A stretch of DNA of 64,000 nucleotides from a bacterium (GTDB lineage Bacteria; Arandabacterota; Arandabacteria; Arandabacterales; Arandabacteraceae), in NCBI GenBank assembly GCA_029933125.1, contig JAOZOU010000004.1, forward strand, positions 200,879-264,878, read 5' to 3'. The translations under genes and the position numbers were made by a program. Below are positions 3,036 through 27,334 of the stretch, piece by piece. The notes beneath the pieces are model-generated. The model ran no database searches and had not been told where the DNA came from. It was given only the letters and a program-made list of their open reading frames with translations. Every line of letters starts with the position of its first letter. The first letter of the stretch is position 1.

Positions 3036-5738
3036 ATGTCTGCCTTGATTAGGATCAGCTTTGTACTTGCCCTTGTTTTGCTTTTTGCAGTCACCTCTGT
3101 GTTTGGCCAGGAGGTCGGAAGGATTGAAGGAACTGTGGTGGCTGCTAAGGATGGGAAACCCTTAGCCTATGCTAATGTGCTTCTTGTTGGTACGGGCATG
3201 GGGACATTTGCTAAGCAAAACGGAACTTTTACGCTTGAGAATGTTCCTGCAGGAACGTATACCGTCAAGGTCATGATGATGGGTTACGCTGCTCAGACAA
3301 GGGAGAACGTTGTTGTCAAGCCAGGGGAGACCACGCGGCTTAGATTTGAGCTCAAAGAGACTGTTGTGATGGAAGTGCCTGTTGTTGAAGTGGAAGCTGA
3401 AAGACCGATGGTTGATACCGAGCGAACCCAAACGAAGCGAACCATCGATACCAAGGAAGTCGCTGTGCGCTCGATCAATACAGTTGAGGATGCTATTGCA
3501 ACCCAGGCTGGAGTCGTTCTTGAACAGGGCGAGATCCATATTCGAGGTGGAAGATCTGGTGAAGTCAAGCAGTTTGTCGACGGTATTCAGATCAGTGATC
3601 CTTTCGTCGGCGCCAACTCGATGGAGCTCAGCCTTGCATCGCTTTCAGAGATAGAAGTTCTTTCGGGTGGCTTTGATGCTGAATATGGCAATGTCCAGTC
3701 CGGTGTTATCAATCTCAAGACGAGAGAGGGTGGAACGAGATATTCGGGTCTTGTTAAGTATATGACTGATGACTATGGAGCACCTGATAAGACCTATTTC
3801 AACTACGATGATTTAGCAATCGGCTTTGGGGGACCTCTGATTACAACCAATCTGAGATTTTTTGCCTCTGGCGAGGTTATGTTTACTGACACCTACCTTA
3901 AGACTCTTGAACCCAGGCAGCAAAAGGAGCTTTGGGGATTCATCAAGTTCCGTGAACGTCAGAGCAATAGCTACTCAGGTCAATGCAAGGTTACCTACTT
4001 CTTCACACCGACGAAAAAGCTCTCCTTGGAGTATCTCACCTCGGGTGAGAAGTTTGATTTTTATCATCATGCATTCAGTCGTGTTGGTTATTGGTCAGAA
4101 GCCCACAGACACTGGTGGTTTGAACCGCTTGATTCAACCTATAGCCTTTACATAGCACCTGCCCACACACCTGATATTACAAATGAACATAACAGTGTTA
4201 AGCTTGTCTGGAGACACACAATAAGCCCATCCGCATTTTACACGATGCGCCTCGGAAGATACGTCGCACTTCATAAAGAGGTTGTCCTTGGCAAGAAACC
4301 CTATGAATATGTGACCCCGAACTTCAACGATCGAGTTGATCCCGAAAACCGCTACTATGTTGTGCAGGGCGATTATCCAATCTGGCAGCGCTATCATACG
4401 ACGATGTACACAGGCAAAGGCGATATGACCATTACCAAGGGTACGACTCATCAGATAAAGTTTGGTGCAGAGTCACACGCCTATCGCCTCGAGATGATGG
4501 ATTTGCGTTATCCCTCCCTCGATAACCCCCTTGGTGTATTCACTGATATATACAAGTTCCATTGCTGGGACCTGTCAGCCTTCATTCAGGATCGCATAAG
4601 GTTTGAGGGTATGAACTTGAGGGTGGGCCTAAGATTTGACCTTTTCGACCCTGGTAAGGATGCTGTCGAAGCCTATAATAGATTCGTGGTATCGACAGGT
4701 TTTAAGCCCAAGCCAGCCTCCTTCTTCAAGCGAATTGAGTGGCAGATAAGTCCGCGCTTTGGGGTTTCCTATCCTATTTCAGAAAGAGACGCCCTTTACT
4801 TCAATTATGGGAGATTCTACCAGATTCCAAGGCTCGAGGTTCTTTACCAGTTCCTGGGTCGAACCGAGCAGGGACTGCTTCCTTTCGGTAATCCCCTCAT
4901 GGATGCTGAGACAACAATAATGTATGAAGTTGGCATTCAACATCAATTCACTCCAACGATTGTTGGTGATATTGCCCTGTTCTATAAGGACATCTTTGGA
5001 CTTACGGGCACTGAGGCAGCCGATCTAACTGAGGATTCTGACTTTATTCAGACCTATGGTCCGACCGCCACACCTGTTGTCTTTGTCAACCTTGACTATG
5101 GATCGGTGAGAGGCATTGAATTCAAACTCAGCAAACGTTTCAGCCATCATTTCCAGGGCAGTCTAACTTATACTTTTTCCAAGGCTACTGGCTCGAGCTC
5201 TAACGAGCTCCAGGGTGCCAATGTTGTGAGTGGGGCAATGGATCGAGCTCCGATAACTGAGCTGCCCCTTGATTGGGATAGAAATCATGTCATATCTGCA
5301 AATCTATATATAAGTGAGCCCGGGCTTTGGGGTTGCAACATTGACTGGAGCTATTCGTCAGGAGCACCCTATACGCCAATGTTGCCGAGGGAGCGTGAGG
5401 TCAGGGCTTCATTGATAAATTCAAGGCGGCTTCCTTCACGGAGCACGGTCAATGTGAAGGCCGACAAGCGTTACAAGATTGCTGGCCAGGAAGTTTCCCT
5501 CTTCCTCGAAGGCAGAAACATACTGAACCGCAAGAACATCGCTACGCTTGATCCAGGAGATTGGCCGGGTGGGGATGGCAACTACGCCGCGTATTATACA
5601 AGGGAGGGTAGGTTTGGTGGAGCTTATGACTTGGGTGAGCTGCTCGGGCTTACGGAGGTGATTTACATTCCTTTGAACGATCCACGAGTCTACTCGCCGC
5701 CTCGCAACTTCAGGGTTGGCATATCATTCGACTGGTAA
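3036..5738 (+). CDS. TonB-dependent outer-membrane transporter with N-terminal carboxypeptidase-regulatory-like domain (module copy 1)
   Basis: Has a signal peptide, a CarbopepD_reg-like beta-sandwich (GTVVAAKDGKPLAYANVLLVGTG...GTYTVKVMMMGY), a plug domain (IHIRGGRSGEV...SGVINLKTREG) and a C-terminus ending in an aromatic residue (GISFDW). An SD (GGAGGGG) precedes the ATG. Paralogous to 22808-25411. Confidence 0.8.
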   Translation: MSALIRISFVLALVLLFAVTSVFGQEVGRIEGTVVAAKDGKPLAYANVLLVGTGMGTFAKQNGTFTLENVPAGTYTVKVMMMGYAAQTRENVVVKPGETTRLRFELKETVVMEVPVVEVEAERPMVDTERTQTKRTIDTKEVAVRSINTVEDAIATQAGVVLEQGEIHIRGGRSGEVKQFVDGIQISDPFVGANSMELSLASLSEIEVLSGGFDAEYGNVQSGVINLKTREGGTRYSGLVKYMTDDYGAPDKTYFNYDDLAIGFGGPLITTNLRFFASGEVMFTDTYLKTLEPRQQKELWGFIKFRERQSNSYSGQCKVTYFFTPTKKLSLEYLTSGEKFDFYHHAFSRVGYWSEAHRHWWFEPLDSTYSLYIAPAHTPDITNEHNSVKLVWRHTISPSAFYTMRLGRYVALHKEVVLGKKPYEYVTPNFNDRVDPENRYYVVQGDYPIWQRYHTTMYTGKGDMTITKGTTHQIKFGAESHAYRLEMMDLRYPSLDNPLGVFTDIYKFHCWDLSAFIQDRIRFEGMNLRVGLRFDLFDPGKDAVEAYNRFVVSTGFKPKPASFFKRIEWQISPRFGVSYPISERDALYFNYGRFYQIPRLEVLYQFLGRTEQGLLPFGNPLMDAETTIMYEVGIQHQFTPTIVGDIALFYKDIFGLTGTEAADLTEDSDFIQTYGPTATPVVFVNLDYGSVRGIEFKLSKRFSHHFQGSLTYTFSKATGSSSNELQGANVVSGAMDRAPITELPLDWDRNHVISANLYISEPGLWGCNIDWSYSSGAPYTPMLPREREVRASLINSRRLPSRSTVNVKADKRYKIAGQEVSLFLEGRNILNRKNIATLDPGDWPGGDGNYAAYYTREGRFGGAYDLGELLGLTEVIYIPLNDPRVYSPPRNFRVGISFDW

Positions 5739-5761
5739 AGACCGTTAGGGAGGGTCGAAGA

Positions 5762-7900
5762 ATGGCAAGGGGAAGGTTGTGTTGCTCCGCAGCACTTATT
5801 GGCATTGTGGTCGTCCTGATTTTTGGGACTCTTTTGGAAGGTGAGACCTCAGCACATAACGAAGATTTCGGATTTCCACAGGTCTATCCTGATCCCTCTG
5901 ACCGTGTAGTGAAGTTCTTAGGCAAGTATCATAATCTCAACAATCTTTTGCTACATGTCTCCAACATGGGTTTCTTTGGTGATTGGAACTCCGATCCGAC
6001 TTCGCCATCGGCTGAATGGCCGGCCGGAAGCGGTATAGAGTATCTCTTTGCTGCAGGGCTTTGGGTTGGTGGAGTCGTCTATGACGAGTTCAACCGACCC
6101 GATACACTGGTAAGTGCTGCGGTTTATCAGCTCGAGTACTATCCCAAACCCGATGCCCGTGACGTGATCTACAAGACTGCTGAGAATGAACCGGGGGGCA
6201 GTAGAATTGGGGATGGTGCCGACGATGACGACGACAATCTGGTTGATGAAGATTGGCTTGACGGCTATGACAATGACGGAGATGGATTCATTGATGAGGA
6301 TTTTGCGGCAATCTCACAGCAGATGTACACGTGTACATTTTATGACACGACCACACTGATGAATGCCAACAGAACCGAGGATTTCCACAAGCCGCTCAAT
6401 TTACGTGTTAGACAGGAAAGTTATGCCTGGGGAGGTGAGGCTGCTAAGGATTTCATAGGCGTCGAATACAAGGTCACAAACATTGGGGACTCGACGATTT
6501 ATCAGGCATATGTGGCTTTCATGGTGGATGCCGACATAGGACCCGTTCGCCAGGTTCCGACCTCTTACACAGATGACATGGCCGCCTTCATTGATACGAC
6601 CGTCAAAAAATTTGAACTTAATCTCGATACTGGCAAGATAGAACCGAATGACTATGATCTAACTATTGGTTACATGTACGACTATCCAGGGGGAGACGAT
6701 GGTGATGTTCCAGGCTATATAGGCGTCATGTTTCTTGGTCACACGGTTGATGAAACAGGTAGGCTTGCGCCTCAGCGCGTTGAGATTCACATGTTCAGAA
6801 GCTGGTCAAGTGGTGAAGAGGATCCTCAGGATGACAAGGAACGCTACCGTTACATGCGGGGTAATTCCGATTTTGAGCAAACGATCGATCCGCCGACCAC
6901 AAAGCCTCAAGATTACCGATTCCTTGTTTCAGCTGGTCCCTTTGCGAGGATTCCGCCAGGAAGCACTCTTGTCTTCCAAGTCGCCTTCGTGTGCGGCCAT
7001 CCTTTTGATGACTTTATCGACAATGCTGCGTATGCTCAGAAGATCTACAATGGACGGGTGATTGACGACATACTATACCACTGGGTCGGGTCCAGTCCGC
7101 CTCCGCCGCCGAATCAGATGGTTATACCTAGTGATGGGAAGGTGATCATTGAATGGGATGACTACTCCGAGAGGGTACCCGATCCTCTTGAAGGGTGCTT
7201 TGACTTTGCTGGCTACCGAATCTGGCGAGCAGATGGGTGGAGGCATGAAAGTGAGGTGCCTACGGAGAATCAGTGGAAGCTTATAGCCCACTATGACCTG
7301 GACGATCTGCCGGCAATCGATACAGGCCTCGAGGGAGTTGGCAAGTATCGCTATATAGATTCCGTGGGTGTCCATAACGGGCTCCCCTATTGGTATGCTG
7401 TCACCGCCTTTGATGATGGTCGGGCATTCAGGTTCGTCGTTGATCCGGAGACAGATAGGATGGATTCGATACCGTTCTATGGGAGCTATGCCCAGGCACA
7501 GAAACTCGTATACCCAAGAGCTGAACCTGCTAGAAGAATGGGAAAAGTCCGAATTGTACCCAATCCCTATCCATGGAATCCGAGCAATCCCACGATCCCA
7601 GACGACCTCAGGGAGTCACATCGGGCAATTGGCGACATGGTTGAGTACGAAGGTGATCCCTCAGGGCGAAGGGTGACTTTCGTTGGCCTGCCTCGCAAGT
7701 CGATGGTGAGAGTGTATACCTTGGCTGGCGACCTTGTCTGGAGCAAGTATTTTGAGGGGCCGAATGATCCGATTACAGGTGCACCACCTCAGTGGAATCT
7801 GGTATCAAGAAACAACCAGGAGATTGTTAGCGGAATCTACATTGTCCATGTAGAATCACCTTACGGGTCTGAAATAACAAAGTTCGTTGTCGTCAGATAG
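5762..7900 (+). CDS. secreted acidic protein with Fn3-like domain and T9SS C-terminal sorting domain (module copy 1 cargo)
   Basis: Has a signal peptide and Asp-rich EF-hand/dockerin-like loops (DGADDDDDNLVDEDWLDGYDNDGDGFIDEDF). A poly-Pro linker (SSPPPPPNQ) is followed by an Fn3-like segment (YRIWRADGW...YWYAVTAFDDG). The C-terminal about 90 aa match the Por_Secre_tail pattern (RIVPNPYPW...VRVYTLAGDLV...GIYIVHVES...KFVVVR). A strong SD precedes the ATG. Confidence 0.7.
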   Translation: MARGRLCCSAALIGIVVVLIFGTLLEGETSAHNEDFGFPQVYPDPSDRVVKFLGKYHNLNNLLLHVSNMGFFGDWNSDPTSPSAEWPAGSGIEYLFAAGLWVGGVVYDEFNRPDTLVSAAVYQLEYYPKPDARDVIYKTAENEPGGSRIGDGADDDDDNLVDEDWLDGYDNDGDGFIDEDFAAISQQMYTCTFYDTTTLMNANRTEDFHKPLNLRVRQESYAWGGEAAKDFIGVEYKVTNIGDSTIYQAYVAFMVDADIGPVRQVPTSYTDDMAAFIDTTVKKFELNLDTGKIEPNDYDLTIGYMYDYPGGDDGDVPGYIGVMFLGHTVDETGRLAPQRVEIHMFRSWSSGEEDPQDDKERYRYMRGNSDFEQTIDPPTTKPQDYRFLVSAGPFARIPPGSTLVFQVAFVCGHPFDDFIDNAAYAQKIYNGRVIDDILYHWVGSSPPPPPNQMVIPSDGKVIIEWDDYSERVPDPLEGCFDFAGYRIWRADGWRHESEVPTENQWKLIAHYDLDDLPAIDTGLEGVGKYRYIDSVGVHNGLPYWYAVTAFDDGRAFRFVVDPETDRMDSIPFYGSYAQAQKLVYPRAEPARRMGKVRIVPNPYPWNPSNPTIPDDLRESHRAIGDMVEYEGDPSGRRVTFVGLPRKSMVRVYTLAGDLVWSKYFEGPNDPITGAPPQWNLVSRNNQEIVSGIYIVHVESPYGSEITKFVVVR

Positions 7901-8905: not shown

Positions 8906-10474
8906 ATGCGGTACTCGAGGCAAACTCAAGGGGTAGCAAGTGGTTTGCTACCCCTGATTGCTATTCCTCTCTTCCTGCCGTTGTCCGCCCTGTATGCCCA
9001 GACATGGGCTGAGTATGGTGACGTGCCAGTAAGCAGTAGCGGTGATCTCACCTTCTATGCCGATATTGCTAGCTACTATGATGGGGCAGAGAATCTCGAA
9101 GAAATCTACTTTCTGATAGCGAATGATCAGGTAAAATTTCTCGAAGATGCACATGGATACAAAGGGAGGCTCAGACTTTCAGTTGACCTACTCAATGACG
9201 ACGGTAGTGTTGCTGGAAAGGCTGAAAATGAAGTCACGGTTTATGCTTCGAGCTCGGAGGAAGCTCTCGACCGCAGCGTAGTCCAGGTTCTTCAAACACA
9301 GATTCATGTTCCGCCCGGTCGTTACGTTGCGAAGATGGAGATTGAAGATCTCAATGCTGTGAAAAAAGCCCTTATTCCATACATTCTTAAGCGACATAAG
9401 AAGGGTAGGGTTGAAGTCCTGATAGACTCACCCGATTTCAAAGCCAAGGGAATCGCACTAAGCGACATAGAGTTTGCAAGGGGACTTCGTAGGACTAGCA
9501 AGGGGCAGTTCCAGAAATCGGGATTAGAGATCATTCCAAACCCTCCTCGGCGCTATGGGCTCTTGCTTCCAGAGCTCGCCATCTACTTCGAGGTTTATGA
9601 TTTTGATCAGGAGGTTTCCGATTCGGTCACCGCAACCTACAGGATAGTGAATAGGACAGGTGCAGAGATATATAAGCAGCAGAAGCTTTTGCGGGTAAGA
9701 GGAGAGCGCACACCGAGTACCGCTCTGTTTGATATTACATCCTTGAGTGCGGGTAGCTATCTTCTCGTTGTCAGCCTTGATCTTGCAGGGAGAAGCGTCA
9801 GCAGTCAGCGGAAGTTTGACGTGGCCTGGTCACCGCTGTCCTGGGGAAGGTACGAAACTGAGATGATAGGAGACGTGGAATACATCCTCACAGAGAAAGA
9901 GATGGAGGAGTTTGAATCACTCTCCCCTGGGGGGAGGGAAAGATATCTCGAGGAGTTCTGGCGCAGGCTTGACCCCACACCTGGTACTGCTGAGAATGAG
10001 GCGAGAACGGAGCATTATCGAAGAGTCGTCTATGCCGACAAACACTTTGGGACGAGCACCAAGCGTGGAGCCCTCTCCGATAGAGGGAGGCTCTACATTA
10101 AGTACGGTCCACCCGATGATATCCAGAGTTTCTATTCTGACATGGATTTTGTTAAAGGCAGACGCCACATCGAAGGTGCTGAGTCGCCAGTACCGACCGA
10201 TCCCTTCACTCGCGTGGGAATAAAGGCTGGTTCGGGTGAGCCTGGTGGATGGCAACAGGCCGGCTCATCTGCAGATGTCCATGGAGATCAAATTGGTGGC
10301 ATGACAGTTCATGGCAAAGCGTATGAGATATGGACATATGAAGGCGCTGGCAAGCCGATTCGGCGTCTTTCAAAGCGGATTGCTAAGAGTCCTGTGATGC
10401 AATTTATCCTGGTTGATGAGAAAGGAATAGGCGATTACAGGCTTGTCTATAGCACCGAGCAACAGGAATACTAA
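8906..10474 (+). CDS. GWxTD-domain protein, secreted (copy 1)
   Basis: Signal peptide plus a C-terminal region (EEFWRRLDPTPGTAENEARTEHYRRVVYADKHFG...RGRLYIKYGPPDDIQ) that matches the GWxTD-domain pattern. Paralogous to 18630-19886, which carries the exact GWRTD motif. Starts 2 nt after the PorV-like stop. Confidence 0.55.
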   Translation: MRYSRQTQGVASGLLPLIAIPLFLPLSALYAQTWAEYGDVPVSSSGDLTFYADIASYYDGAENLEEIYFLIANDQVKFLEDAHGYKGRLRLSVDLLNDDGSVAGKAENEVTVYASSSEEALDRSVVQVLQTQIHVPPGRYVAKMEIEDLNAVKKALIPYILKRHKKGRVEVLIDSPDFKAKGIALSDIEFARGLRRTSKGQFQKSGLEIIPNPPRRYGLLLPELAIYFEVYDFDQEVSDSVTATYRIVNRTGAEIYKQQKLLRVRGERTPSTALFDITSLSAGSYLLVVSLDLAGRSVSSQRKFDVAWSPLSWGRYETEMIGDVEYILTEKEMEEFESLSPGGRERYLEEFWRRLDPTPGTAENEARTEHYRRVVYADKHFGTSTKRGALSDRGRLYIKYGPPDDIQSFYSDMDFVKGRRHIEGAESPVPTDPFTRVGIKAGSGEPGGWQQAGSSADVHGDQIGGMTVHGKAYEIWTYEGAGKPIRRLSKRIAKSPVMQFILVDEKGIGDYRLVYSTEQQEY

Positions 10475-10510: not shown

Positions 10511-10615
10511 TTATGCGATCAATCACATGGTCGTTTGATCGGGTGCTTACCGATCGACGGCCTATTAATGTGGTTAGGACAGACTAGGGATAACTTCCAC
10601 AAGGAGAAGGGTAGA

Positions 10616-11449
10616 ATGAATCGCATGAGGCTCTGGCTCTTTTTGCTCACAGTTGCTGCAGGTCTTGTTTTTGCTTTGGCTTGTCATGCTCAGGAGCAGG
10701 CTACAACCGAGCAGGCAGCCACTGATACCTCCATTGCGGCGATGTTGAAATCCCTCGAGGCACCCCCAGAAGAAGCTCAAGCTGCTGAAGAGGGATTCGT
10801 AGCCAGGATACGCAAGAGCGGACTGGTGACCCTTTTCTTAAAAGGTGGAATCTTCATGTATTTCCTCTTGGGCACATCCATTGTTGGTGTGGCTGTTATC
10901 ATAGAGCGTGCGATTACACTGAGTCGCGCTAGGACTGACGTGCGGAAGCTGATGAAGCGAGTGCTTGATGCCCTTCATTCAAAGGGAGTTGAGGCAGCTG
11001 CCCACGAGTGTGAGAGAACCCGGGGACCGATTGCGGCGATCCTTCATGCTGGTCTTAAGCGTGCAGAGCGAGGAACGGAGGCTGTTGAGCGAGCAATTGA
11101 GACTGCCGGTACGATTGAAACCTCTTTCCTCGAACGGGGTCTTATCTGGTTGGCAACAGTTGCAACGATTGCCCCACTCTTAGGCTTCCTCGGAACAGTT
11201 TCAGGAATGATTCGAGCCTTCAACGCGATTGCTGAGGCTGAACAGGTCAATGCCAAGCTTGTTGCATCGGGTATCTCAGAGGCTCTTATCACAACCGCTA
11301 CTGGGCTTTTGATAGCTATTCCTGTTCAAGCATTTCATAATTTCTTTGTTTCTCAGATAGATCGTTTTATAATAGAGATGGAGGAGTCAACAGCAGATCT
11401 AATAGATACGCTGATCATGCTTGGCGCTGTAAAGGAAACCCAAGACTAA
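10616..11449 (+). CDS. exbB: MotA/TolQ/ExbB proton-channel protein with N-terminal periplasmic extension
   Basis: Signal peptide and periplasmic extension, then MotA_ExbB TM helices (GGIFMYFLLGTSIVGVAVIIERAITL...LATVATIAPLLGFLGTVSGMIRAF). Start moved from ORF-track 10535 (TTG) to ATG 10616, which has SD AAGGAGAAGG upstream. Confidence 0.8.
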   Translation: MNRMRLWLFLLTVAAGLVFALACHAQEQATTEQAATDTSIAAMLKSLEAPPEEAQAAEEGFVARIRKSGLVTLFLKGGIFMYFLLGTSIVGVAVIIERAITLSRARTDVRKLMKRVLDALHSKGVEAAAHECERTRGPIAAILHAGLKRAERGTEAVERAIETAGTIETSFLERGLIWLATVATIAPLLGFLGTVSGMIRAFNAIAEAEQVNAKLVASGISEALITTATGLLIAIPVQAFHNFFVSQIDRFIIEMEESTADLIDTLIMLGAVKETQD

Positions 11450-12307: not shown

Positions 12308-12925
12308 GTGTCAGTGACAGCTTATGCTGAACTCAAAGCGAAATATCCCAAGTATCTTGAAATTGGATTCCTGCTTGCGATTGTGATCCATGCAGTTGCT
12401 TTCGCTTTCTGGCCGGAGTATGTGCCTTCGGTCTATAAGCTCAGGGAGGAGAAATTTGAAGTTGTCGATATTCCACCCGAGATAGAGATACCCCCACCAC
12501 CTGAGGAGATAGCCAGACCAGAGGTCGCTGTCGAGATCGAGGCAAGTGATGAGGCAAGTGAGGAGGAGACCATTGCGCCGACGATGTTCGACGCCGAGAA
12601 TCTACCACCTGCTCCTCCACCTCCACCACCTGAACCTGAGATGTTTTTTGCGTTCGATACCTATCCGCAGGTGATTCATGCAGCTAAGCCTAAGTATCCT
12701 GAACTGGCTCGCAAGGCCGAGGTCGAAGGTACTGTTGTGGTGATGGTTACTATTGATGAAACCGGCAAGGTCATAAATGCGTGGATTGCCCAGTCCGATG
12801 CCCCGATCCTCAATGATGCTGCTATTGAAGCAGCCTATAAGTTCAAGTTTACGCCCGCTAAGCAGCGCGATGTGCCTGTGAAGGCAACCATTAGTATTCC
12901 ATTTAGATTTTCGCTTACCGAGTAG
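12308..12925 (+). CDS. tonB: energy transducer TonB
   Basis: N-terminal TM anchor, a Pro/Glu-rich spacer (PPEIEIPPPPEE...PPAPPPPPPEPE), and a C-terminal TonB domain (AKPKYPELARKAEVEGTVVVMVTIDETGKV...). Confidence 0.75.
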   Translation: MSVTAYAELKAKYPKYLEIGFLLAIVIHAVAFAFWPEYVPSVYKLREEKFEVVDIPPEIEIPPPPEEIARPEVAVEIEASDEASEEETIAPTMFDAENLPPAPPPPPPEPEMFFAFDTYPQVIHAAKPKYPELARKAEVEGTVVVMVTIDETGKVINAWIAQSDAPILNDAAIEAAYKFKFTPAKQRDVPVKATISIPFRFSLTE

Positions 12926-13010: not shown

Positions 13011-13697
13011 ATGAACGGTTTGGGCAATCTCACATCGATATTCTTCAATCCTGAGAAGGTGGCAACATCTGTTGCTGAGAAACCTCGTTGGCTGCCTGCT
13101 TTTGTTATCTTTCTAGTCGTTATGGCGCTTGTCGGCTATGGCAGCTACAACTATGCCATAGATACCCAGTATGGGGTGGCGGCTAAGGTTGGGGAAGGTG
13201 GGAAATCCCAGGAGGTTTATATGGCATTTCTTAAGTCACCCGCCATTCGTATAATCTCAAGCATAGTTCAGGGTATCTCGATGTTTGTAACGTTTGTCCT
13301 CATTCCAGCTGCCTTGCTCAACTCCATTGCTTCTATCGTGGGGACCCCGGTTGGCTTTAAGAGGATGCTTGCCTATATGTCCCATGTTGGTCTCATAATT
13401 GCCGCCGGTCAAATTGTTCGATTTCTCCTGATTATGGCAAAGCACACCCCCGACGTCAGATTGAGCCCTGCCGCATTCTTCCCTAATCTCGCATTGTTTT
13501 CCCCCATGATGACTTTTCTCTCATCCTTTGACATCTTCTCGATATGGGCTTTGATAGCAGTTGTCGTCGGTTACAAGGAATTGGCGAAAATGAAGATGAG
13601 TAAAGCCGTGCTTGTGGTTGTAAGCCTTTGGCTGATAGGAGTTGGTATCCTGGTTGGCCTTGTCGTGTTAAGGGGTTTGTTTGTTCGTAAAGTATAG
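13011..13697 (+). CDS. hypothetical polytopic membrane protein (Yip1-like topology)
   Basis: 228 aa with about 5 TM helices. Its SD and start are buried in a 13-bp perfect hairpin (12957-13010). Confidence 0.4.
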   Translation: MNGLGNLTSIFFNPEKVATSVAEKPRWLPAFVIFLVVMALVGYGSYNYAIDTQYGVAAKVGEGGKSQEVYMAFLKSPAIRIISSIVQGISMFVTFVLIPAALLNSIASIVGTPVGFKRMLAYMSHVGLIIAAGQIVRFLLIMAKHTPDVRLSPAAFFPNLALFSPMMTFLSSFDIFSIWALIAVVVGYKELAKMKMSKAVLVVVSLWLIGVGILVGLVVLRGLFVRKV

Positions 13698-13711
13698 GAA
13701 GGGGGAAGGGC

Positions 13712-15034
13712 ATGAAGCTAAGTAGCCGTCGCCTCGTATTTGGCTTGGGTTCGCTGTTAATCTGGACCTGTTTTTGCAGTCCCAGCCATGCATCCGTCGA
13801 TACATTGCACATCAATCTCGACGAGTGTGTAAGGCTTGCTCTCACCGTCAATACGGAGGTCGTTAAGGCACGCTACCAGCTCAAGCAAGCCTCCAGCTAT
13901 GTTCTAACTTCTGCGTCACAATTGCTTCCAACACTCGGTTTTCAATCGACCCATTCAAAGTATGAAGAGTCCTTTCTGCGTCAGGTTGGCGATCGTGTAA
14001 TAGTTACTGACGAGAGCTATACAGCTTCGCTTGCCCTATATGAATCCTTCACAATTGGTGGTATCATGGGAACACTGGAATCCATGGAGGCACGTCAGGC
14101 ATCGTCACATAATCTCCGCAAGGTGAGGCAGGAAATTGCCTATCTTGCTCGTGAGAAATATCTCAGCGTTCTAAGAGCGAAGCATCTTCTCGAGGTAAGG
14201 GAGGATGCGCTTGATCTCAGTAAGCGTCGTCTGGAGAAGGCTAAAGCTATGCTTGATGTTGGTTCTGGAGTTCGCTTAGATGTCTTAAGAGCTCAAGTTC
14301 AGGTAAGTAACGATCAGATGGATGTTATTGCGGCGAGAAATGCTTTGCGTCTGGCTGAGGCCGGTCTCAGGCATTTCCTGAAGCTTGATCCTCAACTTGT
14401 TCTCGACCTTGAAGATGTAAGTGAAACTCGAGATCTTGATATTGAGCTTGAAGAAGCTCTTAGGGAGGCTTCAAGCAACCGTGCTGATATCCATTCAGCT
14501 GAGGCGAATCTTCGAGCAGCTTCACGCCAGGTGTGGAGGGAGCGCGGGGGTTGGTTTCCCTCGCTTACATTCAGATGGTCAGACAGATACACAGGGAACA
14601 AGTTTCCAGAAAGAGTTTCCACTCTTTCTGATGATGCCAAGTGGAGCTGGGATCTTACAGCCTCCATCAATCTCTTCGATGGTTTCTACACTTTCAGTCG
14701 AGTGCGAAATGCAAAGGCTGCAAGGGAGATCGCCAGACAGGAGCTTGATCAATTCATGAGGGATGCGGCTTTAGAAGTAAGGCAGGCCTATTATGATATG
14801 GAGGAGGCGAGAGAGCGGCTTGATGTTAGCCGCAAGACAGTTCAGCTTGCCCAAGAGGAGCTTAAGTTGGCTGAGGAGAGCTACAGGCTTGGCACTGCTA
14901 CCATGCTAGAACTGATTGATGCTCAGGTCTCCTTGAGTCAGGCTAAGGTGGCCCATGTCGAGGCTGTCTACGACTATATTCTGTCGCAGGCAAAGCTCCT
15001 CAAGGCAATCGGGAAGGACGGGGTCGAAGGATGA
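13712..15034 (+). CDS. TolC-family outer-membrane efflux protein
   Basis: Signal peptide, 440 aa, duplicated coiled-coil/beta-barrel OEP architecture. Precedes an HlyD-type adaptor, overlapping it by 4 nt. Confidence 0.75.
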   Translation: MKLSSRRLVFGLGSLLIWTCFCSPSHASVDTLHINLDECVRLALTVNTEVVKARYQLKQASSYVLTSASQLLPTLGFQSTHSKYEESFLRQVGDRVIVTDESYTASLALYESFTIGGIMGTLESMEARQASSHNLRKVRQEIAYLAREKYLSVLRAKHLLEVREDALDLSKRRLEKAKAMLDVGSGVRLDVLRAQVQVSNDQMDVIAARNALRLAEAGLRHFLKLDPQLVLDLEDVSETRDLDIELEEALREASSNRADIHSAEANLRAASRQVWRERGGWFPSLTFRWSDRYTGNKFPERVSTLSDDAKWSWDLTASINLFDGFYTFSRVRNAKAAREIARQELDQFMRDAALEVRQAYYDMEEARERLDVSRKTVQLAQEELKLAEESYRLGTATMLELIDAQVSLSQAKVAHVEAVYDYILSQAKLLKAIGKDGVEG

Positions 15035-16215
15035 GCAAGAAAAAACTCATTTTAATTTTGGGTGCTGTTGCGGGAATAGGTGCGATTGTTGTAGCTAACC
15101 TGCGGCTTTCATATGAGCCAAGTGTTGGGGTTGAGGTAACGAAGGTTGGGCGGGGCAAAGTTGTCGAGAAGGTTTCAGGTCCAGGAGTTGTGCAAGCTGT
15201 CTCCTCTGTCAAAATTAGCTCTTCTGTCATGGGGAGAATTGTCACACTCATGGTCAAGGAGGGAGACCACGTTGAGAAGGGGGATACCCTCCTTATGATT
15301 GAATCATCACAATATCGAGCACGCCTTGAACAGGCTCAGGCTGCCTTCAAGGCTGCTCTTGCTAGGCTTGAGCTTGCGAGAGCCAGGCTTGGTGAGGCCA
15401 AAGATGACCTCGAAAGGGAGTCAAAGCTGGCTGAGGCTAATCTTGTCTCCTCCAGAGAAGTCGAGAGAGCTAGAACAGCTTTTGCTGTCGCGAAGGCTGA
15501 GTTCGATGCAGCTGAACATGCAGCTCGAGAGGCCGAAGCATCTCTTGAGGCTGCACGGGACGATCTTGAGAAGACAGTCATCACATCGCCCATATCTGGC
15601 ACTGTGACAAGTCTCAATGTGGAGCAGGGTGAGATAGTCATCACCGGTACAATGAACAATCCTGGAACAGTCATAATGACTATAAGCAAGCTTGATACCA
15701 TGGAGGTAAGGGCTGAGATCGACGAAACCGACATCACAAAGGTTGCTCCTGGTCAGATAGCTGAGATAAGCGTAGATGCTTTTGCTGACACATTGCTAAG
15801 GGGTGTGGTCTCAAGTGTAGGCAGCTCAGCTCGCTCAACAGCCTCATCTGGTCAAAGAGCAGCCTTCGAGGTCAGAGTTAGAATCCTTGAGAATTTAGCC
15901 GGGCTGAGGCCTGGTATGACTACAACTGTCGATATAATTACGGCAAGCGAAGACAGTGCTACCTATGTTCCTCTCCAGGCACTTGTATTGAGGGATATTA
16001 AGACGGATGACGGGAAGATACAAAAGGAGGGCATATTCATCGTTGATAATGGCCGAAGCAAGTTTTTGCCAGTCACAACGGGAATTTCAGATGATCTTCA
16101 CATTGCGATTCTTGATAGCTTAAGTGAGGACACAGATGTGATCGTGGGACCCTTCAGAATACTTCGAGATCTCGAGGATAGCACCAAGGTCAAGATTATC
16201 AGGCGAAGGCAATGA
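15031..16215 (+). CDS. HlyD-family periplasmic adaptor (membrane fusion protein)
   Basis: N-terminal TM segment, a long Ala/Glu/Arg coiled coil, and biotinyl-lipoyl-like and beta-barrel segments (ITSPISGTVTSLNVEQGEIV). Confidence 0.75.
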   Translation: MSKKKLILILGAVAGIGAIVVANLRLSYEPSVGVEVTKVGRGKVVEKVSGPGVVQAVSSVKISSSVMGRIVTLMVKEGDHVEKGDTLLMIESSQYRARLEQAQAAFKAALARLELARARLGEAKDDLERESKLAEANLVSSREVERARTAFAVAKAEFDAAEHAAREAEASLEAARDDLEKTVITSPISGTVTSLNVEQGEIVITGTMNNPGTVIMTISKLDTMEVRAEIDETDITKVAPGQIAEISVDAFADTLLRGVVSSVGSSARSTASSGQRAAFEVRVRILENLAGLRPGMTTTVDIITASEDSATYVPLQALVLRDIKTDDGKIQKEGIFIVDNGRSKFLPVTTGISDDLHIAILDSLSEDTDVIVGPFRILRDLEDSTKVKIIRRRQ

Positions 16216-17432
16216 CTTTCGTAGATCTGCTCCGCATTTCCTCAACTTCTCTGCTCAGGCACAAGCTACGATCAGCCCTTACTATCCTTGGCATAGTGAT
16301 AGGAATACTTTCGGTTTCCTCTATCACAGCAATTGTGCGCGGAATAGACAGCTATGTAGCCAGTATCCTAGGAGCTCTTGGCTCTCAGGGTTTCCTAGTT
16401 ACCAAGATAGGCATTCCAAAGAGTGAACAGGACTATTTCAAAGCCCTGAGACGTAGGGAGCTTGAGCCCGAGATGGCTGAAATCATAAAGTCGAGGTGCC
16501 CATCAGTTGCCTATGCAAGCCCAGTGCTCAGAGCAAGCGCCGAGGTAAAGGTCGGAAAGCGAAGTTCTAAGGGCGTCACCATCGAGGGAACCAACTCTGA
16601 CATTCAGTATATGACGGATGCGGAGCTTGAGGATGGACGCTACTTCAATGAGTACGAGACTCAGCATGGCAGAAACGTATGTATTCTTGGACACGATGTT
16701 AGTGAGAAGCTATTCGCTGGCAGAAGTGCCATAGGTGGGCACATTTACATAAGGGGGCATCGTTTCACAGTTATCGGGTTGCACAGCGGCATGGGTACCT
16801 TTTTTGGCATCTCGAGAGATTCATTCCTAAGAATTCCGTATACCACATTTCGCAGGATTTTTGGAAAACCGATTGGAACTGAGATTTCGGTGAAGAGCCT
16901 TGAGCCTGAGCTCACAGATCAGGCAGTTGAGGAAACACGGGCGGTTTTGCGTAGGCTCAGGAAACTACGGCCCGACGAGGAAGATGACTTCGGGATTCTG
17001 ACCTCTGAGATGTTGATGCGGATGTGGAGAACTATCTCAACCAACATATTCATAGTCACGATTGGAGTTGGGAGCATAGCATTGCTTGTGGGCGGAATTG
17101 GTATCATGAATATCATGTTTGTTTCCGTCAAGGAACGCACAATGGAGATAGGTTTGAGGAAAGCTACAGGAGCTAGGCGAAAGGATATCGTGTTTCAATT
17201 TCTGACAGAATCGATTCTGCTTTGTTTGGGCGGTGGTTTTCTCGGTATCTTGCTTGGAGCTATGGGTGCCAAAGCGCTTGCCTGGAAGACCAACATTCCT
17301 GTCGCAGTTGAATGGTGGGCTATACTTCTAGGATTGGGCGTTGCGGTCGCTGTGGGGATCTTCTTCGGAGTATATCCTGCGGTAAGAGCTGCGTCACTTG
17401 CACCATACGATGCCCTGAGGTATGAGAAGTGA
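16212..17432 (+). CDS. ABC transporter permease, FtsX/MacB-like (no ATPase domain)
   Basis: 406 aa with an N-terminal TM segment, a MacB-type periplasmic domain, and a C-terminal FtsX 3-TM bundle (ALLVGGIGIMNIMFVSVKERTMEIGLRKATGA). Confidence 0.75.
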   Translation: MTFVDLLRISSTSLLRHKLRSALTILGIVIGILSVSSITAIVRGIDSYVASILGALGSQGFLVTKIGIPKSEQDYFKALRRRELEPEMAEIIKSRCPSVAYASPVLRASAEVKVGKRSSKGVTIEGTNSDIQYMTDAELEDGRYFNEYETQHGRNVCILGHDVSEKLFAGRSAIGGHIYIRGHRFTVIGLHSGMGTFFGISRDSFLRIPYTTFRRIFGKPIGTEISVKSLEPELTDQAVEETRAVLRRLRKLRPDEEDDFGILTSEMLMRMWRTISTNIFIVTIGVGSIALLVGGIGIMNIMFVSVKERTMEIGLRKATGARRKDIVFQFLTESILLCLGGGFLGILLGAMGAKALAWKTNIPVAVEWWAILLGLGVAVAVGIFFGVYPAVRAASLAPYDALRYEK

Positions 17433-18637
17433 AATGGGTCGGTGAAACGGTAAGGGTTGCAATATCTTCGCTACTTGCGAACAGACTTAGAACACTCCTT
17501 ACGGTTATTGGAGTGATAATCGGTATTGGAACGATAATTGCCATGTTGGCTCTCATTAACGGTATCAATAGATCTGTCCTGACCGAGTTTGAAAGACTTG
17601 GACCAAATGTGATCTTTATAACACTAGAAGAACCAGGATTGCGTGTAGGTTTTTCTGCGGTCAGGAGGAAACGCATAACCTATCGCGAGGTTGAGCAGTT
17701 AAGGCGGAGATGTGATTCTATTGATAAGATGTCGATCATTTCCCAGCAGCGGTCGGTCGTCAGCTATCGTGGAAGAGACAATGTTGTGACCCTTCTGGGC
17801 GTGCAGGCTGATTATGATGAAGTTGCAGCCCTGAGGCTTGCTGAAGGGAGATTCTTCAATGAGGTTGAGGAAAAGGGGTTGAGAAGGTGTGTCTTGGGTG
17901 CTGAGGTTGCCAAGAATTTCTTTGGAAAGGCATCACCACTTGGTAAATTCGTCGAAATAGGGGGACAGCGCTTCAGGATAATTGGAGTCCTGCAAGAGTC
18001 TGGTGTGGTTATGGGAACCAGGTACGATGATGCTGTCTTCATTCCCTATCCCTGGACTAGGGCGATGTTTGGAGAGCGCAGGGATAACTACGTTATGTTG
18101 CTTCCTAATCATGACGTCAATCCCGATGATGCTGTTGAGCATATAAGACTCACACTGCGTTCGATAAGGAAAATACCGCGTGGCTCTGATGACACATTTG
18201 CGATTTCTACTCAGCAGGGAATGCTCGAGACATATAACAAGTTGACAGGTTCAATATACTGGGTTATGAGAATAGTGGCATCAATTGCTCTTCTGGTTAG
18301 TGGTATAGGTATAATGAACATTATGCTGGTCAGTGTGATGGAGAGAACTCGTGAGATAGGTCTGCGTAAGGCTATAGGTGCGAATCGTGCTACTATCGCA
18401 GTCCAATTCCTCATTGAGGCTGTGATTTTGACGAGTATAGGTGGAATTGCTGGAATAGGTTTCGGCTACCTGGTTCGCCTGCTCGTTGGCACTTTGACAC
18501 CCCTACCTGCGAGTGTTCCTCTCTGGGCAATACCGTTTGCTCTCGGGATTTGCTGTGGTATTGGCATCTTTTTTGGACTCTATCCTGCGTTGAGGGCTTC
18601 CGCCCTTGATCCAGTCAAGGCTTTGAGATATGAATGA
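17429..18637 (+). CDS. ABC transporter permease, FtsX/MacB-like (paralog)
   Basis: 402 aa, same architecture (ALLVSGIGIMNIMLVSVMERTREIGLRKAIGA). Confidence 0.75.
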   Translation: MKWVGETVRVAISSLLANRLRTLLTVIGVIIGIGTIIAMLALINGINRSVLTEFERLGPNVIFITLEEPGLRVGFSAVRRKRITYREVEQLRRRCDSIDKMSIISQQRSVVSYRGRDNVVTLLGVQADYDEVAALRLAEGRFFNEVEEKGLRRCVLGAEVAKNFFGKASPLGKFVEIGGQRFRIIGVLQESGVVMGTRYDDAVFIPYPWTRAMFGERRDNYVMLLPNHDVNPDDAVEHIRLTLRSIRKIPRGSDDTFAISTQQGMLETYNKLTGSIYWVMRIVASIALLVSGIGIMNIMLVSVMERTREIGLRKAIGANRATIAVQFLIEAVILTSIGGIAGIGFGYLVRLLVGTLTPLPASVPLWAIPFALGICCGIGIFFGLYPALRASALDPVKALRYE

Positions 18638-19886
18638 CAAACTCTACAGGGTGCCTGTCTTTTTGATAGCGATCTTTCTATGCTCAACGAGTCTTGCTCA
18701 GATAACCTACCTGCCTGCATGCTCATCGCTAACCCCCTTCTTTTGTGTAGATGCGGCATACTTTGTGGAAGATGGTAACTGTGTGGTTGAGACCTTCTTT
18801 GAGATCTGTAACGAAGGTCTGCAGTTCGTCAAAACCGATGGAGGCTTCAAGGGGCAGGTGGATGTCTCTGTTGTCATCATGGATGATAAGGATCGTCAGG
18901 TGGCTGGCGATACATATCGCCTTAGATTGTATGCTTCCAAGTATGACGAGACAACATCGGTGGATTCCTGTCGAACCAAGGTATTGAGACTTAAGGTGAG
19001 GCCTGGGAAGTTTAGGCTGATCGTTAAAGCGTATGATAACGACTCGAGGGCTAAAAGCGTTATCGAGGGACTCTTGACAGTGCCTGACATGGACAGCCTT
19101 CCTACCCTGAGTGATCTCGTCCTTTTGAAGCCAAGTGAACATCCTGGTGGAAAACGTTGGGGCAATTATGTTCCCGCGGTTAGGAGGAAACTCAATGTAA
19201 GCGAGGAAAAAACTGCTCTCTATTATGAGGTGTATTGTCATGACTACGGGGATTCGCTTACCCTGAGGCAGACAATATCAGATAAGAATGGCAAAGCGCT
19301 TGTCAGGCATGAAAAGCATATCTTCGGAGCGGGCAAGGTCGTCGAGCTTTCAGATCTGGGGGTGGATTCGCTCTCCAACGGACATTATGAGCTCGAAGTG
19401 GTCTTGGCAAGAAGCGATGGCTCAGTTGTGTGTAAGCGGCAAAAGGAATTCGAAGTTTTCTCAGAAGCCTTCTACTTCGACAGGGATGTTGAGGGTGCGG
19501 TCGCACTTTTAACATATATAGCGAGCGGCAGCTTCATAGACGCCTTTGAGAAGGCAGATGCTGAGGAACGTAAGCGGCTCTGGGAGGAGTTCTGGCGGGA
19601 AAAAGATCCCACTCCGCAGACTCCTAAAAACGAATTCTATGAGGAGCACGTGCGCAGATTTAGTTACGCGAATCAGCACTTTGCCACTTCGATGACCGAG
19701 GGTTGGAGGACAGATCGTGGTAGAATCTACATAATCTATGGTGAGCCCGATGAAATCGAAAAGTATCCAGGCGAAGTTAGACGTAAGCCGATGGAGGTTT
19801 GGTACTATTACAGTCGCGGCAAGCGGTTCATTTTCGTAGATGAGACCGGTTTTGGTGACTATGTCCTCGTTGGTCAATATCGCTAA
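18630..19886 (+). CDS. GWxTD-domain protein, secreted (copy 2)
   Basis: Signal peptide. C-terminal EEFWREKDPTPQTPKNEFYEEHVRRFSYANQHF...GWRTDRGRIYIIYGEPDEIE carries the literal GWxTD motif. Overlaps the preceding permease stop by 8 nt. Confidence 0.6.
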   Translation: MNDKLYRVPVFLIAIFLCSTSLAQITYLPACSSLTPFFCVDAAYFVEDGNCVVETFFEICNEGLQFVKTDGGFKGQVDVSVVIMDDKDRQVAGDTYRLRLYASKYDETTSVDSCRTKVLRLKVRPGKFRLIVKAYDNDSRAKSVIEGLLTVPDMDSLPTLSDLVLLKPSEHPGGKRWGNYVPAVRRKLNVSEEKTALYYEVYCHDYGDSLTLRQTISDKNGKALVRHEKHIFGAGKVVELSDLGVDSLSNGHYELEVVLARSDGSVVCKRQKEFEVFSEAFYFDRDVEGAVALLTYIASGSFIDAFEKADAEERKRLWEEFWREKDPTPQTPKNEFYEEHVRRFSYANQHFATSMTEGWRTDRGRIYIIYGEPDEIEKYPGEVRRKPMEVWYYYSRGKRFIFVDETGFGDYVLVGQYR

Positions 19887-22699: not shown

Positions 22700-22807
22700 C
22701 AGGTCCCGACGTGTAAATTCTGCTAAAGAATGCAAACCCTCGGTCGATAGACACCTAGGAAACGTCAGTCAAGAGGTCCTGTATCTTTGTTGGAGGAGAG
22801 GTGTAAC

Positions 22808-25411: not shown

Positions 25412-25426
25412 GACTGGAGGTTGGAA

Positions 25427-27313: not shown

Positions 27314-27334
27314 TCTCGGTTAGGAGGTTGGATC

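Follow-up and report, generated by a model that had tools for sequence, protein, structure and literature searches.

A candidate surface-receptor subunit with tandem putative calcium loops, encoded between a TonB-dependent transporter and a PorV/PorQ-like barrel

What is the role of a probably exported protein that no Pfam family covers, that carries a dense run of aspartates and whose gene lies between those for two outer-membrane barrels? This question is raised by the 64,000-nucleotide stretch of contig JAOZOU010000004.1 analysed here (the window), in which an open reading frame (ORF) at 5762-7900 encodes a protein that we call X; its paralog, the product of 25421-27313, is called X2. An earlier note on this DNA had described X as a cargo protein with an N-terminal domain bearing EF-hand- or dockerin-like Asp loops, a poly-Pro linker, an Fn3 domain and a type IX secretion system (T9SS) C-terminal domain. 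We find that observation to be real and better conserved than sequence alone could show, and the claims built on it to be partly confirmed. Our tentative reading, held with somewhat less than even confidence, is that X captures ligand at the cell surface as one subunit of a TonB-dependent uptake complex and is anchored by a retained C-terminal domain on a PorV/PorQ-like barrel. This reading rests on domain folds, motif conservation and synteny, from which we infer Ca2+ binding, anchoring, ligand class and the direction of transport.

The genes around X are tightly spaced (Table 1). The upstream gene stops 23 nucleotides before the start of X and encodes a transporter with matches to PF13620 (E = 3.5e-19), PF07715 (E = 5.4e-8) and PF00593 (E = 6.3e-27), all above the Pfam cut-offs; together they make up the Oar architecture of a CarboxypepD_reg extension, a Plug and a TonB_dep_Rec barrel (PMC6434023). 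The downstream gene encodes a member of the PorV/PorQ family, as judged by NF033709 (190.2 bits against a cut-off of 90) and Pfam PorV (E = 9.8e-9), and its product matches the F. johnsoniae PorV structure 6h3i_F with E = 2.5e-6.

We examined gene order in 85 related loci, 72 of which have enough flank on both sides, and re-checked the assignments with profiles. Transporter, X and PorV/Q gene follow one another in that order in 51 of the 72. In 29 of these trio loci the next gene encodes a GWxTD-domain protein, and many of the 29 continue with ExbB-ExbD-ExbD-TonB; another 20 have a second PorV/Q barrel gene at this place, and the remaining 2 have neither. Taking each flank separately, a transporter homolog lies directly upstream of X in 56 of the 77 loci with enough upstream sequence and a PorV/Q homolog directly downstream in 54 of the 78 with enough downstream sequence; in at least 31 related loci the gene after the PorV/Q one encodes a GWxTD protein. 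The trio order is kept at 44% identity (locus L005), and the four-gene order of transporter, X, PorV and GWxTD recurs in other genomes around a distant subfamily of 777-936 residues (L086-L088). Because the association of X with the transporter and the PorV-like barrel survives both deep divergence and paralogy, we argue for a physical complex. The embedding of the X gene in this conserved operon also means that X is probably a resident surface subunit, not freely released cargo; "cargo", the label used in the earlier note, is probably the wrong word.

If X resides at the surface, its C-terminal domain is the natural candidate for an anchor. In the AlphaFold2 model, strands at residues 597-600, 638-641, 647-653, 658-664, 691-699 and 702-710 end the chain at its last residue, so that the model has the Ig-like sandwich of about seven strands at the extreme C-terminus that marks T9SS type A domains. 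NCBIfam matches this part of X to the PorZ C-terminus (E = 1.6e-4) and to TIGR04183 (E = 3.4e-3), while Pfam gives no PF18962 match even at E ≤ 10. Across the family, 32 of 48 members match both TIGR04183 (E ≤ 0.01) and PorZ, 20 of 48 match the PorU C-terminus, and some relatives pass the TIGR04183 cut-off, such as P0123 with 24.6 bits. When about 1.2 Mb of neighbouring DNA was searched with a hidden Markov model of the X C-terminal domain, 86 ORFs matched, 85 of them X and a single one not, and we therefore regard the domain as a specialised variant, not a generic signal. An NCBIfam lead to a "T9SS-dependent M6-like inactivated metalloprotease" in 7 of 55 distant members was discarded, as the match is confined to the C-terminal domain (model positions 962-1027 of 1043).

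The similarity to PorZ and PorU C-termini and to TIGR04183, together with a PorV/PorQ-family barrel as neighbour, supports anchoring by analogy with known pairs. The C-terminal domains of PorU and PorZ are retained and bound to PorV and PorQ, and cognate PorV-like barrels may shield such domains from cleavage (PMC10202324). A related arrangement is seen in the Bacteroides β-barrel assembly machinery, where the FadL/PorV-like barrel BamG holds the extracellular protein BamH (PMC12578637).

Could X instead be an ordinary T9SS type A cargo, such as an adhesin or surface-layer-like protein, released or attached after C-terminal cleavage and linked to its neighbours by co-regulation only? We consider this unlikely. 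A signal peptide, a beta-rich module, an Fn3-like domain and a C-terminal sorting-like domain form a typical cargo architecture, and NCBI names the ortholog P0031 "T9SS type A sorting domain-containing protein". Many X-family genes stand alone, and in many cluster representatives the N-domain is fused to other C-terminal architectures (800-1200 residues). Co-regulation alone, however, can hardly explain a short-gap gene order kept over deep divergence and in paralogous families, and the C-terminal domain is a family-specific variant, matched by a single non-X ORF in the neighbouring DNA.

The remainder of X is consistent with export and with a role in binding. Residues 1-31 are a probable Sec signal peptide, with a basic N-terminus, a hydrophobic helix at residues 10-30 and a TSA|H site, recognised by eye and from the AlphaFold2 helix. 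The domain that precedes the C-terminal one is Fn3-like in its strand pattern and in Foldseek matches of the full-length model to FnIII domains of gp130 (E = 5.1e-5) and sDscam (E = 1.4e-4). The Fn3 assignment of the earlier note thus rests on the AlphaFold2 model and on Foldseek; the fn3 model of Pfam finds no match in X even at E ≤ 10. The "poly-Pro linker" of that note does not hold: the string SSPPPPPN (residues 444-451) is nearly invariant among 48 homologs, with P447, P449 and P450 invariant, and is the start of the Fn3-like domain, not a variable linker.

The N-domain is the part expected to contact a ligand. Pfam and NCBIfam searches with X and X2 left this domain unmatched, their sole matches being sub-threshold and on the C-terminal domain, and no Pfam family covers the real X sequence. 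A profile search of the PDB with X gave nothing significant; the top-ranking entry, an engineered double lanthanide-binding tag (3vdz) with E = 1, is a curiosity rather than evidence. We modelled the N-domain alone (residues 45-446) with AlphaFold2, which gave a predicted local distance difference test score (pLDDT) of 86.8 and a predicted template-modelling score (pTM) of 0.89, compared to a pLDDT of 77 and a pTM of 0.74 for full-length X. In a Foldseek comparison with the PDB, the 28 matches at E ≤ 0.001 were all supersandwich domains, including the N-domains of glycoside hydrolase families GH116, GH94 and GH65, YidC P1, Cu amine oxidase and galactose mutarotase. E values go down to 2.4e-6 and probabilities are about 1.0, but the matches have template-modelling (TM) scores of 0.23-0.44 and identities of at most 12%.

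Judged from this model, the N-domain belongs to the supersandwich (galactose-mutarotase-like) fold class, which by itself does not prove homology, and the comparison supports a fold of the ligand-binding, non-catalytic type. From GH116, GH94 and GH65 only the non-catalytic sandwich domain was matched, X has no sequence matches to these families, and their (alpha/alpha)6 catalytic domain is missing from X because the model is almost entirely beta. Consistent with this, motif inspection found HExxH and HxxEH in neither X nor X2, and no enzyme match came from Pfam, NCBIfam or the PDB, so the earlier statement that both proteins lack an obvious catalytic motif is borne out. Outside the acidic run, a core Asp cluster (Table 1) is nearly invariant over 60 sequences including paralogs and is common to the X2 family; by its conservation, it may be a second metal or ligand site.

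This cluster is also where an active site might be sought. X could be an enzyme, for example a lyase or hydrolase, with a new active site built from D256, D258, D271, D272, D307, D354, D358, D384 and R386, degrading a polymer whose products the adjacent transporter imports. The core cluster is kept even in the X2 family, which has no Ca2+-loop module; some supersandwich proteins, among them galactose mutarotase and Cu amine oxidase, both found by Foldseek, are themselves enzymes; and surface enzymes are often paired with transporters in uptake loci. We nevertheless think an enzyme decidedly unlikely. X has no sequence or profile match to enzyme families in the three databases, most of its structural matches are the non-catalytic GH116, GH94 and GH65 N-domains with the (alpha/alpha)6 domain absent from X, and Asp clusters in beta-sandwich loops are more often structural Ca2+ sites.

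On the surface-receptor reading, the parts would work together as follows. X would be Sec-exported and cross the outer membrane by a route that depends on its C-terminal domain. That domain would be kept uncleaved and bound to the PorV/PorQ-like barrel encoded immediately downstream, as PorZ is to PorQ and PorU to PorV, with the Fn3-like domain as a spacer. The supersandwich N-domain would bind a polymeric substrate, most likely a glycan, and hand it to the transporter encoded upstream, which ExbB-ExbD-ExbD-TonB of the same gene string would energise. Through Ca2+ binding, the two tandem Dx[DN]xDG loops would give stiffness or shape to a surface loop inserted in the N-domain.

The same genes can be read in the opposite direction. 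A broader possibility, which we regard as improbable, is that the transporter, X, PorV/Q and GWxTD proteins, with ExbBD-TonB in many loci, form an undescribed outer-membrane machine of the non-Bacteroidota phyla in the Fibrobacterota-Chlorobiota-Bacteroidota (FCB) group, in which a TonB-energised barrel displays or even exports X and a dedicated PorV-like barrel serves as its docking site, independently of the classical T9SS translocon. Were this true, it would be a third route to bipartite surface receptors, besides lipid anchors and sortase attachment to anionic lipopolysaccharide (A-LPS). Quite improbable, in our view, is the narrower idea that the cassette is an export or display device in which X moves outward through the Oar-like transporter and the PorV/Q barrel catches its C-terminal domain. 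The transporter shares the Oar architecture, Oar is needed for TonB-dependent secretion of PopC (PMC6434023), and the gene string includes an ExbB-ExbD-ExbD-TonB set of its own. T9SS core genes (SprA/Sov, PorK/L/M/N, PorU) were found neither among the annotated ORFs of the 64-kb window nor in the related loci, where no search was aimed at them. However, the CarboxypepD_reg architecture is found in 28% of all TonB-dependent transporters and dominates among Bacteroidetes importers (PMC6434023), and therefore does not single out exporters. The X genes that stand alone share this C-terminal domain yet lack a dedicated transporter, a folded 70-kDa protein does not fit into a 22-strand barrel, and FlgD_ig-type C-terminal domains on other proteins in these genomes suggest a general domain-dependent secretion route.

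We now turn to the acidic run itself. The string DGADDDDDNLVDEDWLDGYDNDGDGFIDEDF (residues 151-181, nucleotides 6212-6304; 16 of 32 residues acidic) is inserted between two strands of the N-domain sandwich. It contains two tandem loops of the Dx[DN]xDG type, 16 residues apart, where the earlier note saw a single DxDxDGxID loop: loop 1 is D154-D164 (DDDDDNLVDED) and loop 2 is D170-D180 (DNDGDGFIDED). In an alignment of X with 48 homologs at 45-79% identity, thirteen module columns, twelve of them acidic residues and the other G168, are invariant in 48 of 48 (D154, D155, D156, D158, D162, E163, D164, G168, D172, D174, D178, E179 and D180). These columns provide independent support for the putative Ca2+ loops.

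The double motif with its fixed 16-residue period is present in 173 of 265 family members. A count by relatedness gives 105 among the 120 close relatives and 74 among the 145 distant cluster representatives. All of the 173 have acidic residues at loop positions 1, 3, 5, 9, 10 and 11, but the selecting pattern demanded them there (position 11 of loop 1 is D in 91% and E in 9%). The real signal in these statistics therefore lies at the unconstrained positions 6 and 8, which are G in 80-93% and I or V in 61-89%. X itself has DDDDDN in loop 1, with N in place of G as in 11% of the family, and DNDGDG in loop 2. Among 1.44 million ORF residues of the 85 related loci, D.[DN].DG..DE[DE] occurs 134 times, 129 of them inside X homologs; the motif is far above chance. 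With its conserved acidic ligands, the block is supported as a putative calcium-binding loop of the Dx[DN]xDG class, a motif whose mode of Ca2+ binding is nearly identical across at least 12 unrelated families or structural contexts (PMC3123361).

The earlier assignment of DNDGDGFID to an EF-hand- or dockerin-type loop stands as to motif class and conservation and fails as to domain. Both AlphaFold2 models lack the flanking helices of an EF-hand, and position 12 is P, F or W, not Glu. Pfam EF-hand models do not match the real X sequence and reach only E 0.48-2.9 with the family consensus. Dockerins (PF00404) have two 22-residue segments, whereas the X loops have a 16-residue period, no helices and no Pfam match. 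The missing helices, the 16-residue period and the Pfam nulls rule out both identities. Thrombospondin type 3 and bacterial TSP3 repeats (PF02412, PF18884) likewise find no match at E ≤ 10, and the module has no Cys. When the acidic segment, N-domain, Fn3 region and C-terminal region were searched separately at E ≤ 10, Pfam found no match in the real sequence, and with the family consensus no more than EF-hand and MopE-type models at E 0.5-4.

The block is not a floppy linker, since its spacing holds in most distant relatives; the disordered Asp linker without conserved spacing that would have undone the earlier proposal is not what the family contains. The very improbable view that it is a low-complexity, disordered acidic spacer with no specific metal role, prompted by its low model confidence and by an X2 family that manages without it, is largely excluded by sequence conservation: thirteen positions are invariant, the 16-residue register is fixed, both loops conserve Gly at position 6 and a hydrophobic residue at position 8, and the same double module is present in an unrelated lipoprotein. 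The Ca2+-dependent binding or scaffold domain proposed earlier thus keeps its conserved Asp loops, a non-catalytic fold and no enzyme family, and loses its EF-hand or dockerin identity.

That lipoprotein (298 residues, Asp-rich, lipobox LTAGC) ends with the 16-residue-period double module GDNDGDGRVDEECLNGIDDDLDGLTDEDSRLAGC and is followed directly by a PorV/PorQ-like barrel gene in two genomes (L001, 80-976 and 994-2091; L039, 2-634 and 715-1752). The module is therefore portable, and here again it stands beside a PorV-like barrel. Within the X family, P0102, P0107, P0112 and P0118 have a third loop, DGxDNDxDGxIDE, near X residue ~370 (alignment columns ~515-530) and an extra insert between loops 1 and 2.

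X2 is a real but distant paralog, as the earlier note had recognised: its 630 residues share 25% identity with X (E = 2e-21), with X 250-712 aligned to X2 189-627. It carries no acidic module. The X2 motif that had been placed at the equivalent position, YMYDDDGD, aligns instead with X GYMYDYPGGDDGD (residues 303-315) in the conserved core. The X2 family has a clean deletion where the X module sits, and the motif is absent from 70 of 71 X2-family proteins, which makes the module an insertion specific to one branch. The X2 gene lies in a second cassette (transporter 22787-25411, X2, PorV/PorQ barrel 27335-28318), and the same transporter-X2-PorV/Q order surrounds two relatives of X2, with a 294-residue protein lacking a Pfam match encoded downstream in one (L089) and a weak PorV match downstream in the other (L090).

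Between its Fn3-like and C-terminal domains, X2 has a Cys-rich acidic insert, DYEGDCESLCEDQCQDCQECYDQCLEKCMQAKR (residues ~485-520, window 26870-26990), which from its sequence may form a disulfide-stapled helical hairpin or serve as a metal site. The Joint Genome Institute labels the X2 ortholog P0277 "ferredoxin", probably just from the Cys pattern. At a remote X2-family relative (L091, 1010-8028), the order is transporter, PorV-like barrel, NHL-repeat protein, X-like protein and three unknown proteins of 450-670 residues.

Several observations weigh against the surface-receptor reading. X stands alone in 21 of the 72 loci, where even profile searches find no transporter or PorV/Q gene nearby, so the family is not bound to the cassette. 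The C-terminal domain resembles type A sorting domains, as claimed earlier, but X scores below the curated TIGR04183 cut-off (17.3 bits against 23). The similarity of the N-domain fold is weak (TM at most 0.44, identity at most 12%) and gives fold class, not function. In both AlphaFold2 models confidence is lowest in the acidic module, which has no regular secondary structure. The GWxTD partner is without a known role, and no paper with the term "GWxTD" was found in the library searched.

The family is large. Among 1.84 billion cluster representatives at 50% identity, a profile search found 9,588 at E ≤ 1e-3, of which 962 reach E ≤ 1e-30. Where the source is named, it is Candidatus Eisenbacteria / Eiseniibacteriota (in many records labelled Gemmatimonadota), Krumholzibacteriia or Chitinivibrionia, and every relative from these sources is annotated as hypothetical. 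Literature searches for type IX secretion in Eisenbacteria and for T9SS in Gemmatimonadetes or Fibrobacteres returned no papers and nothing relevant, respectively.

The coordinates of X, its domains and its neighbours are collected in Table 1.

Table 1. Features of the X gene, its product and the surrounding gene string, in window coordinates.
Feature	Position	Strand	Basis
X, protein under study, 712 residues	5762-7900	+	ORF call
Shine-Dalgarno GGGAGGG, 7 nucleotides 5' of the ATG at 5762	5748-5754	+	sequence reading
Probable Sec signal peptide, residues 1-31	5762-5854	+	sequence inspection and predicted helix 10-30
N-domain of X, residues 45-446, beta-supersandwich	5894-7099	+	AlphaFold2 and Foldseek
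Tandem acidic module, two loops, 16-residue period, putative Ca2+-binding site	6221-6301	+	conservation and models
Conserved core Asp cluster: Y250, D256-x-D258-x-G260, D271-D272, Y304, D307	6509-6709	+	alignment
Fn3-like beta-sandwich, residues 447-590, opening with conserved SPPPPPN	7100-7531	+	AlphaFold2 strands and Foldseek
C-terminal domain, residues 594-712, T9SS type A-like, low-confidence insert at residues 603-634	7541-7897	+	NCBIfam
TonB-dependent transporter, Oar-like, 22-strand-type barrel, first gene of cassette 1	3036-5738	+	Pfam
PorV/PorQ-family outer-membrane barrel, starting 5 nucleotides after the X stop codon	7906-8904	+	NF033709, Pfam
GWxTD-domain protein, 522 residues, fourth gene of type A cassette	8906-10474	+	TIGR04514 (7.8e-27), PF20094 (3.6e-11)
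ExbB	10535-11449	+	Pfam MotA_ExbB (9.3e-33)
ExbD, first copy, 135 residues	11464-11871	+	ORF; ExbD Pfam matches in orthologous loci
ExbD, second copy, 139 residues	11881-12300	+	ORF; ExbD Pfam matches in orthologous loci
TonB	12308-12925	+	Pfam TonB_C (2.4e-19)
Second cassette: transporter 22787-25411, X2 25421-27313, PorV/PorQ barrel 27335-28318	22787-28318	+	

The cassette comes in two types. The one in the window, type A, has a GWxTD gene in fourth position, and most type A loci keep the tandem ExbD pair between ExbB and TonB. Directly past TonB, window positions 13011-19886 encode a Yip1-domain membrane protein, a TolC-like OEP, a HlyD-type adaptor, a MacB/FtsX permease (16212-17432) and further ORFs; Yip1 and OEP genes also trail the cassette in many orthologous loci, and in some of the loci a second GWxTD-domain gene lies just past the OEP gene (L004, 16682-17926; L014, 10579-11790). 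The rest of the annotated window is housekeeping (radical SAM, RNase E/G, CTP synthase, sigma-54 and a PEP-utilising enzyme).

Type B loci have two tandem PorV/PorQ genes after X instead of PorV/Q and GWxTD (L021, L024, L026, L027, L031, L032, L036-L038, L040, L043, L046, L047, L049, L050, L058, L061, L065, L067 and L070). By the regular expression used, most type B X proteins retain only a single acidic loop instead of two. In these loci, the genes that separate the second PorV/Q gene from ExbB were rejected as cassette members, being on the opposite strand and unrelated (Y_Y_Y, Big_7). The distant L086-L088 loci, from genomes of 3.4-6.5 Mb, have the four genes without ExbBD-TonB, preceded by two conserved unknown proteins of ~460-540 residues; their housekeeping flanks are an RF-1/RF-2-type release factor (PCRF/RF-1 domains) and pgm upstream, and gap, pgk, tpiA and secG downstream.

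Among TonB-dependent uptake systems with a surface partner, those whose partner is a lipoprotein (SusD, RagB, TbpB and HmuY) are the only ones that are well understood. X represents a large unnamed family in a SusD-like gene position, with a T9SS-like C-terminal domain and usually a PorV/PorQ-like barrel next to it. If X is held on that barrel, receptor subunits outside Bacteroidota would have a general type of anchor in PorV-like barrels, a first functional context would be in place for the widespread GWxTD family, and Eisenbacteria, Krumholzibacteriia and Chitinivibrionia, known almost only from metagenomes, would gain a testable model of nutrient capture. The tandem 16-residue Dx[DN]xDG module is in its own right a compact, portable candidate Ca2+-binding unit that Pfam and NCBIfam models do not capture.

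How does X compare with known proteins and systems? Its loops, D-x-[DN]-x-D-G-x-[IV]-D-E-D, agree with the canonical EF-hand loop at positions 1, 3, 5, 6, 8 and 9, but they lie outside any helix-loop-helix and have E10/D11 with no Glu at position 12; their period is 16 residues, compared to 22 in dockerin. As tandem, helix-free loops they recall thrombospondin type 3 repeats and the MopE-type motif DGxDNDxDGxxDE, but without Cys, and Excalibur is another Dx[DN]xDG calcium-loop family of the same class. The N-domain has its fold class in common with the GH116, GH94 and GH65 N-domains, YidC P1 and galactose mutarotase (Foldseek probability 1.0), and differs from them in a large root-mean-square deviation, the lack of the (alpha/alpha)6 catalytic domain of the enzymes and the family-specific acidic insert.

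Among whole systems, Oar of Myxococcus xanthus is built from the same domains as the transporter next to X (PF13620, Plug, barrel), and it is served by a dedicated Ton system (PMC6434023). Its substrate PopC is a subtilisin-like protease released to the medium, whereas X has a C-terminal sorting-like domain and a PorV-like neighbour. The PorZ-PorQ and PorU-PorV pairs of the P. gingivalis T9SS attachment complex combine a type-A-like C-terminal domain with a PorV/PorQ-family barrel, as X does, and it is against the PorZ and PorU C-termini that the X C-terminal domain scores best. The beta-propellers of PorZ and the peptidase domain of PorU are both missing from X. Unlike those pairs, X and its PorV/Q barrel are embedded with a TonB-dependent transporter, a GWxTD protein and ExbBD-TonB, and their hosts are Eisenbacteria, Krumholzibacteriia and Chitinivibrionia instead of Bacteroidota.

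The SusC/SusD, RagA/RagB, TbpA/TbpB and HmuR/HmuY systems resemble X in that a transporter gene, with a CarboxypepD_reg extension, adjoins that of a surface accessory protein. SusC/SusD-type systems also occur as several paralogous cassettes per genome, as with X, where the multiple cassettes resemble the diversification of uptake loci. SusD is alpha-helical and TPR (tetratricopeptide repeat)-like, whereas X is all-beta, with a supersandwich and an Fn3-like domain. SusD has no Pfam or NCBIfam match in X, and what the two have in common is gene position beside the transporter; with no relationship in sequence or fold, the analogy of X to SusD and TbpB is functional only. SusD-type partners carry a lipid anchor, whereas X has no lipobox and its predicted anchor is the C-terminal domain on a PorV/Q-like barrel. 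Overall, the description that suits the X system best is that of a bipartite TonB-dependent receptor in which a PorV-like barrel would hold the surface partner, a variant on a known type of system.

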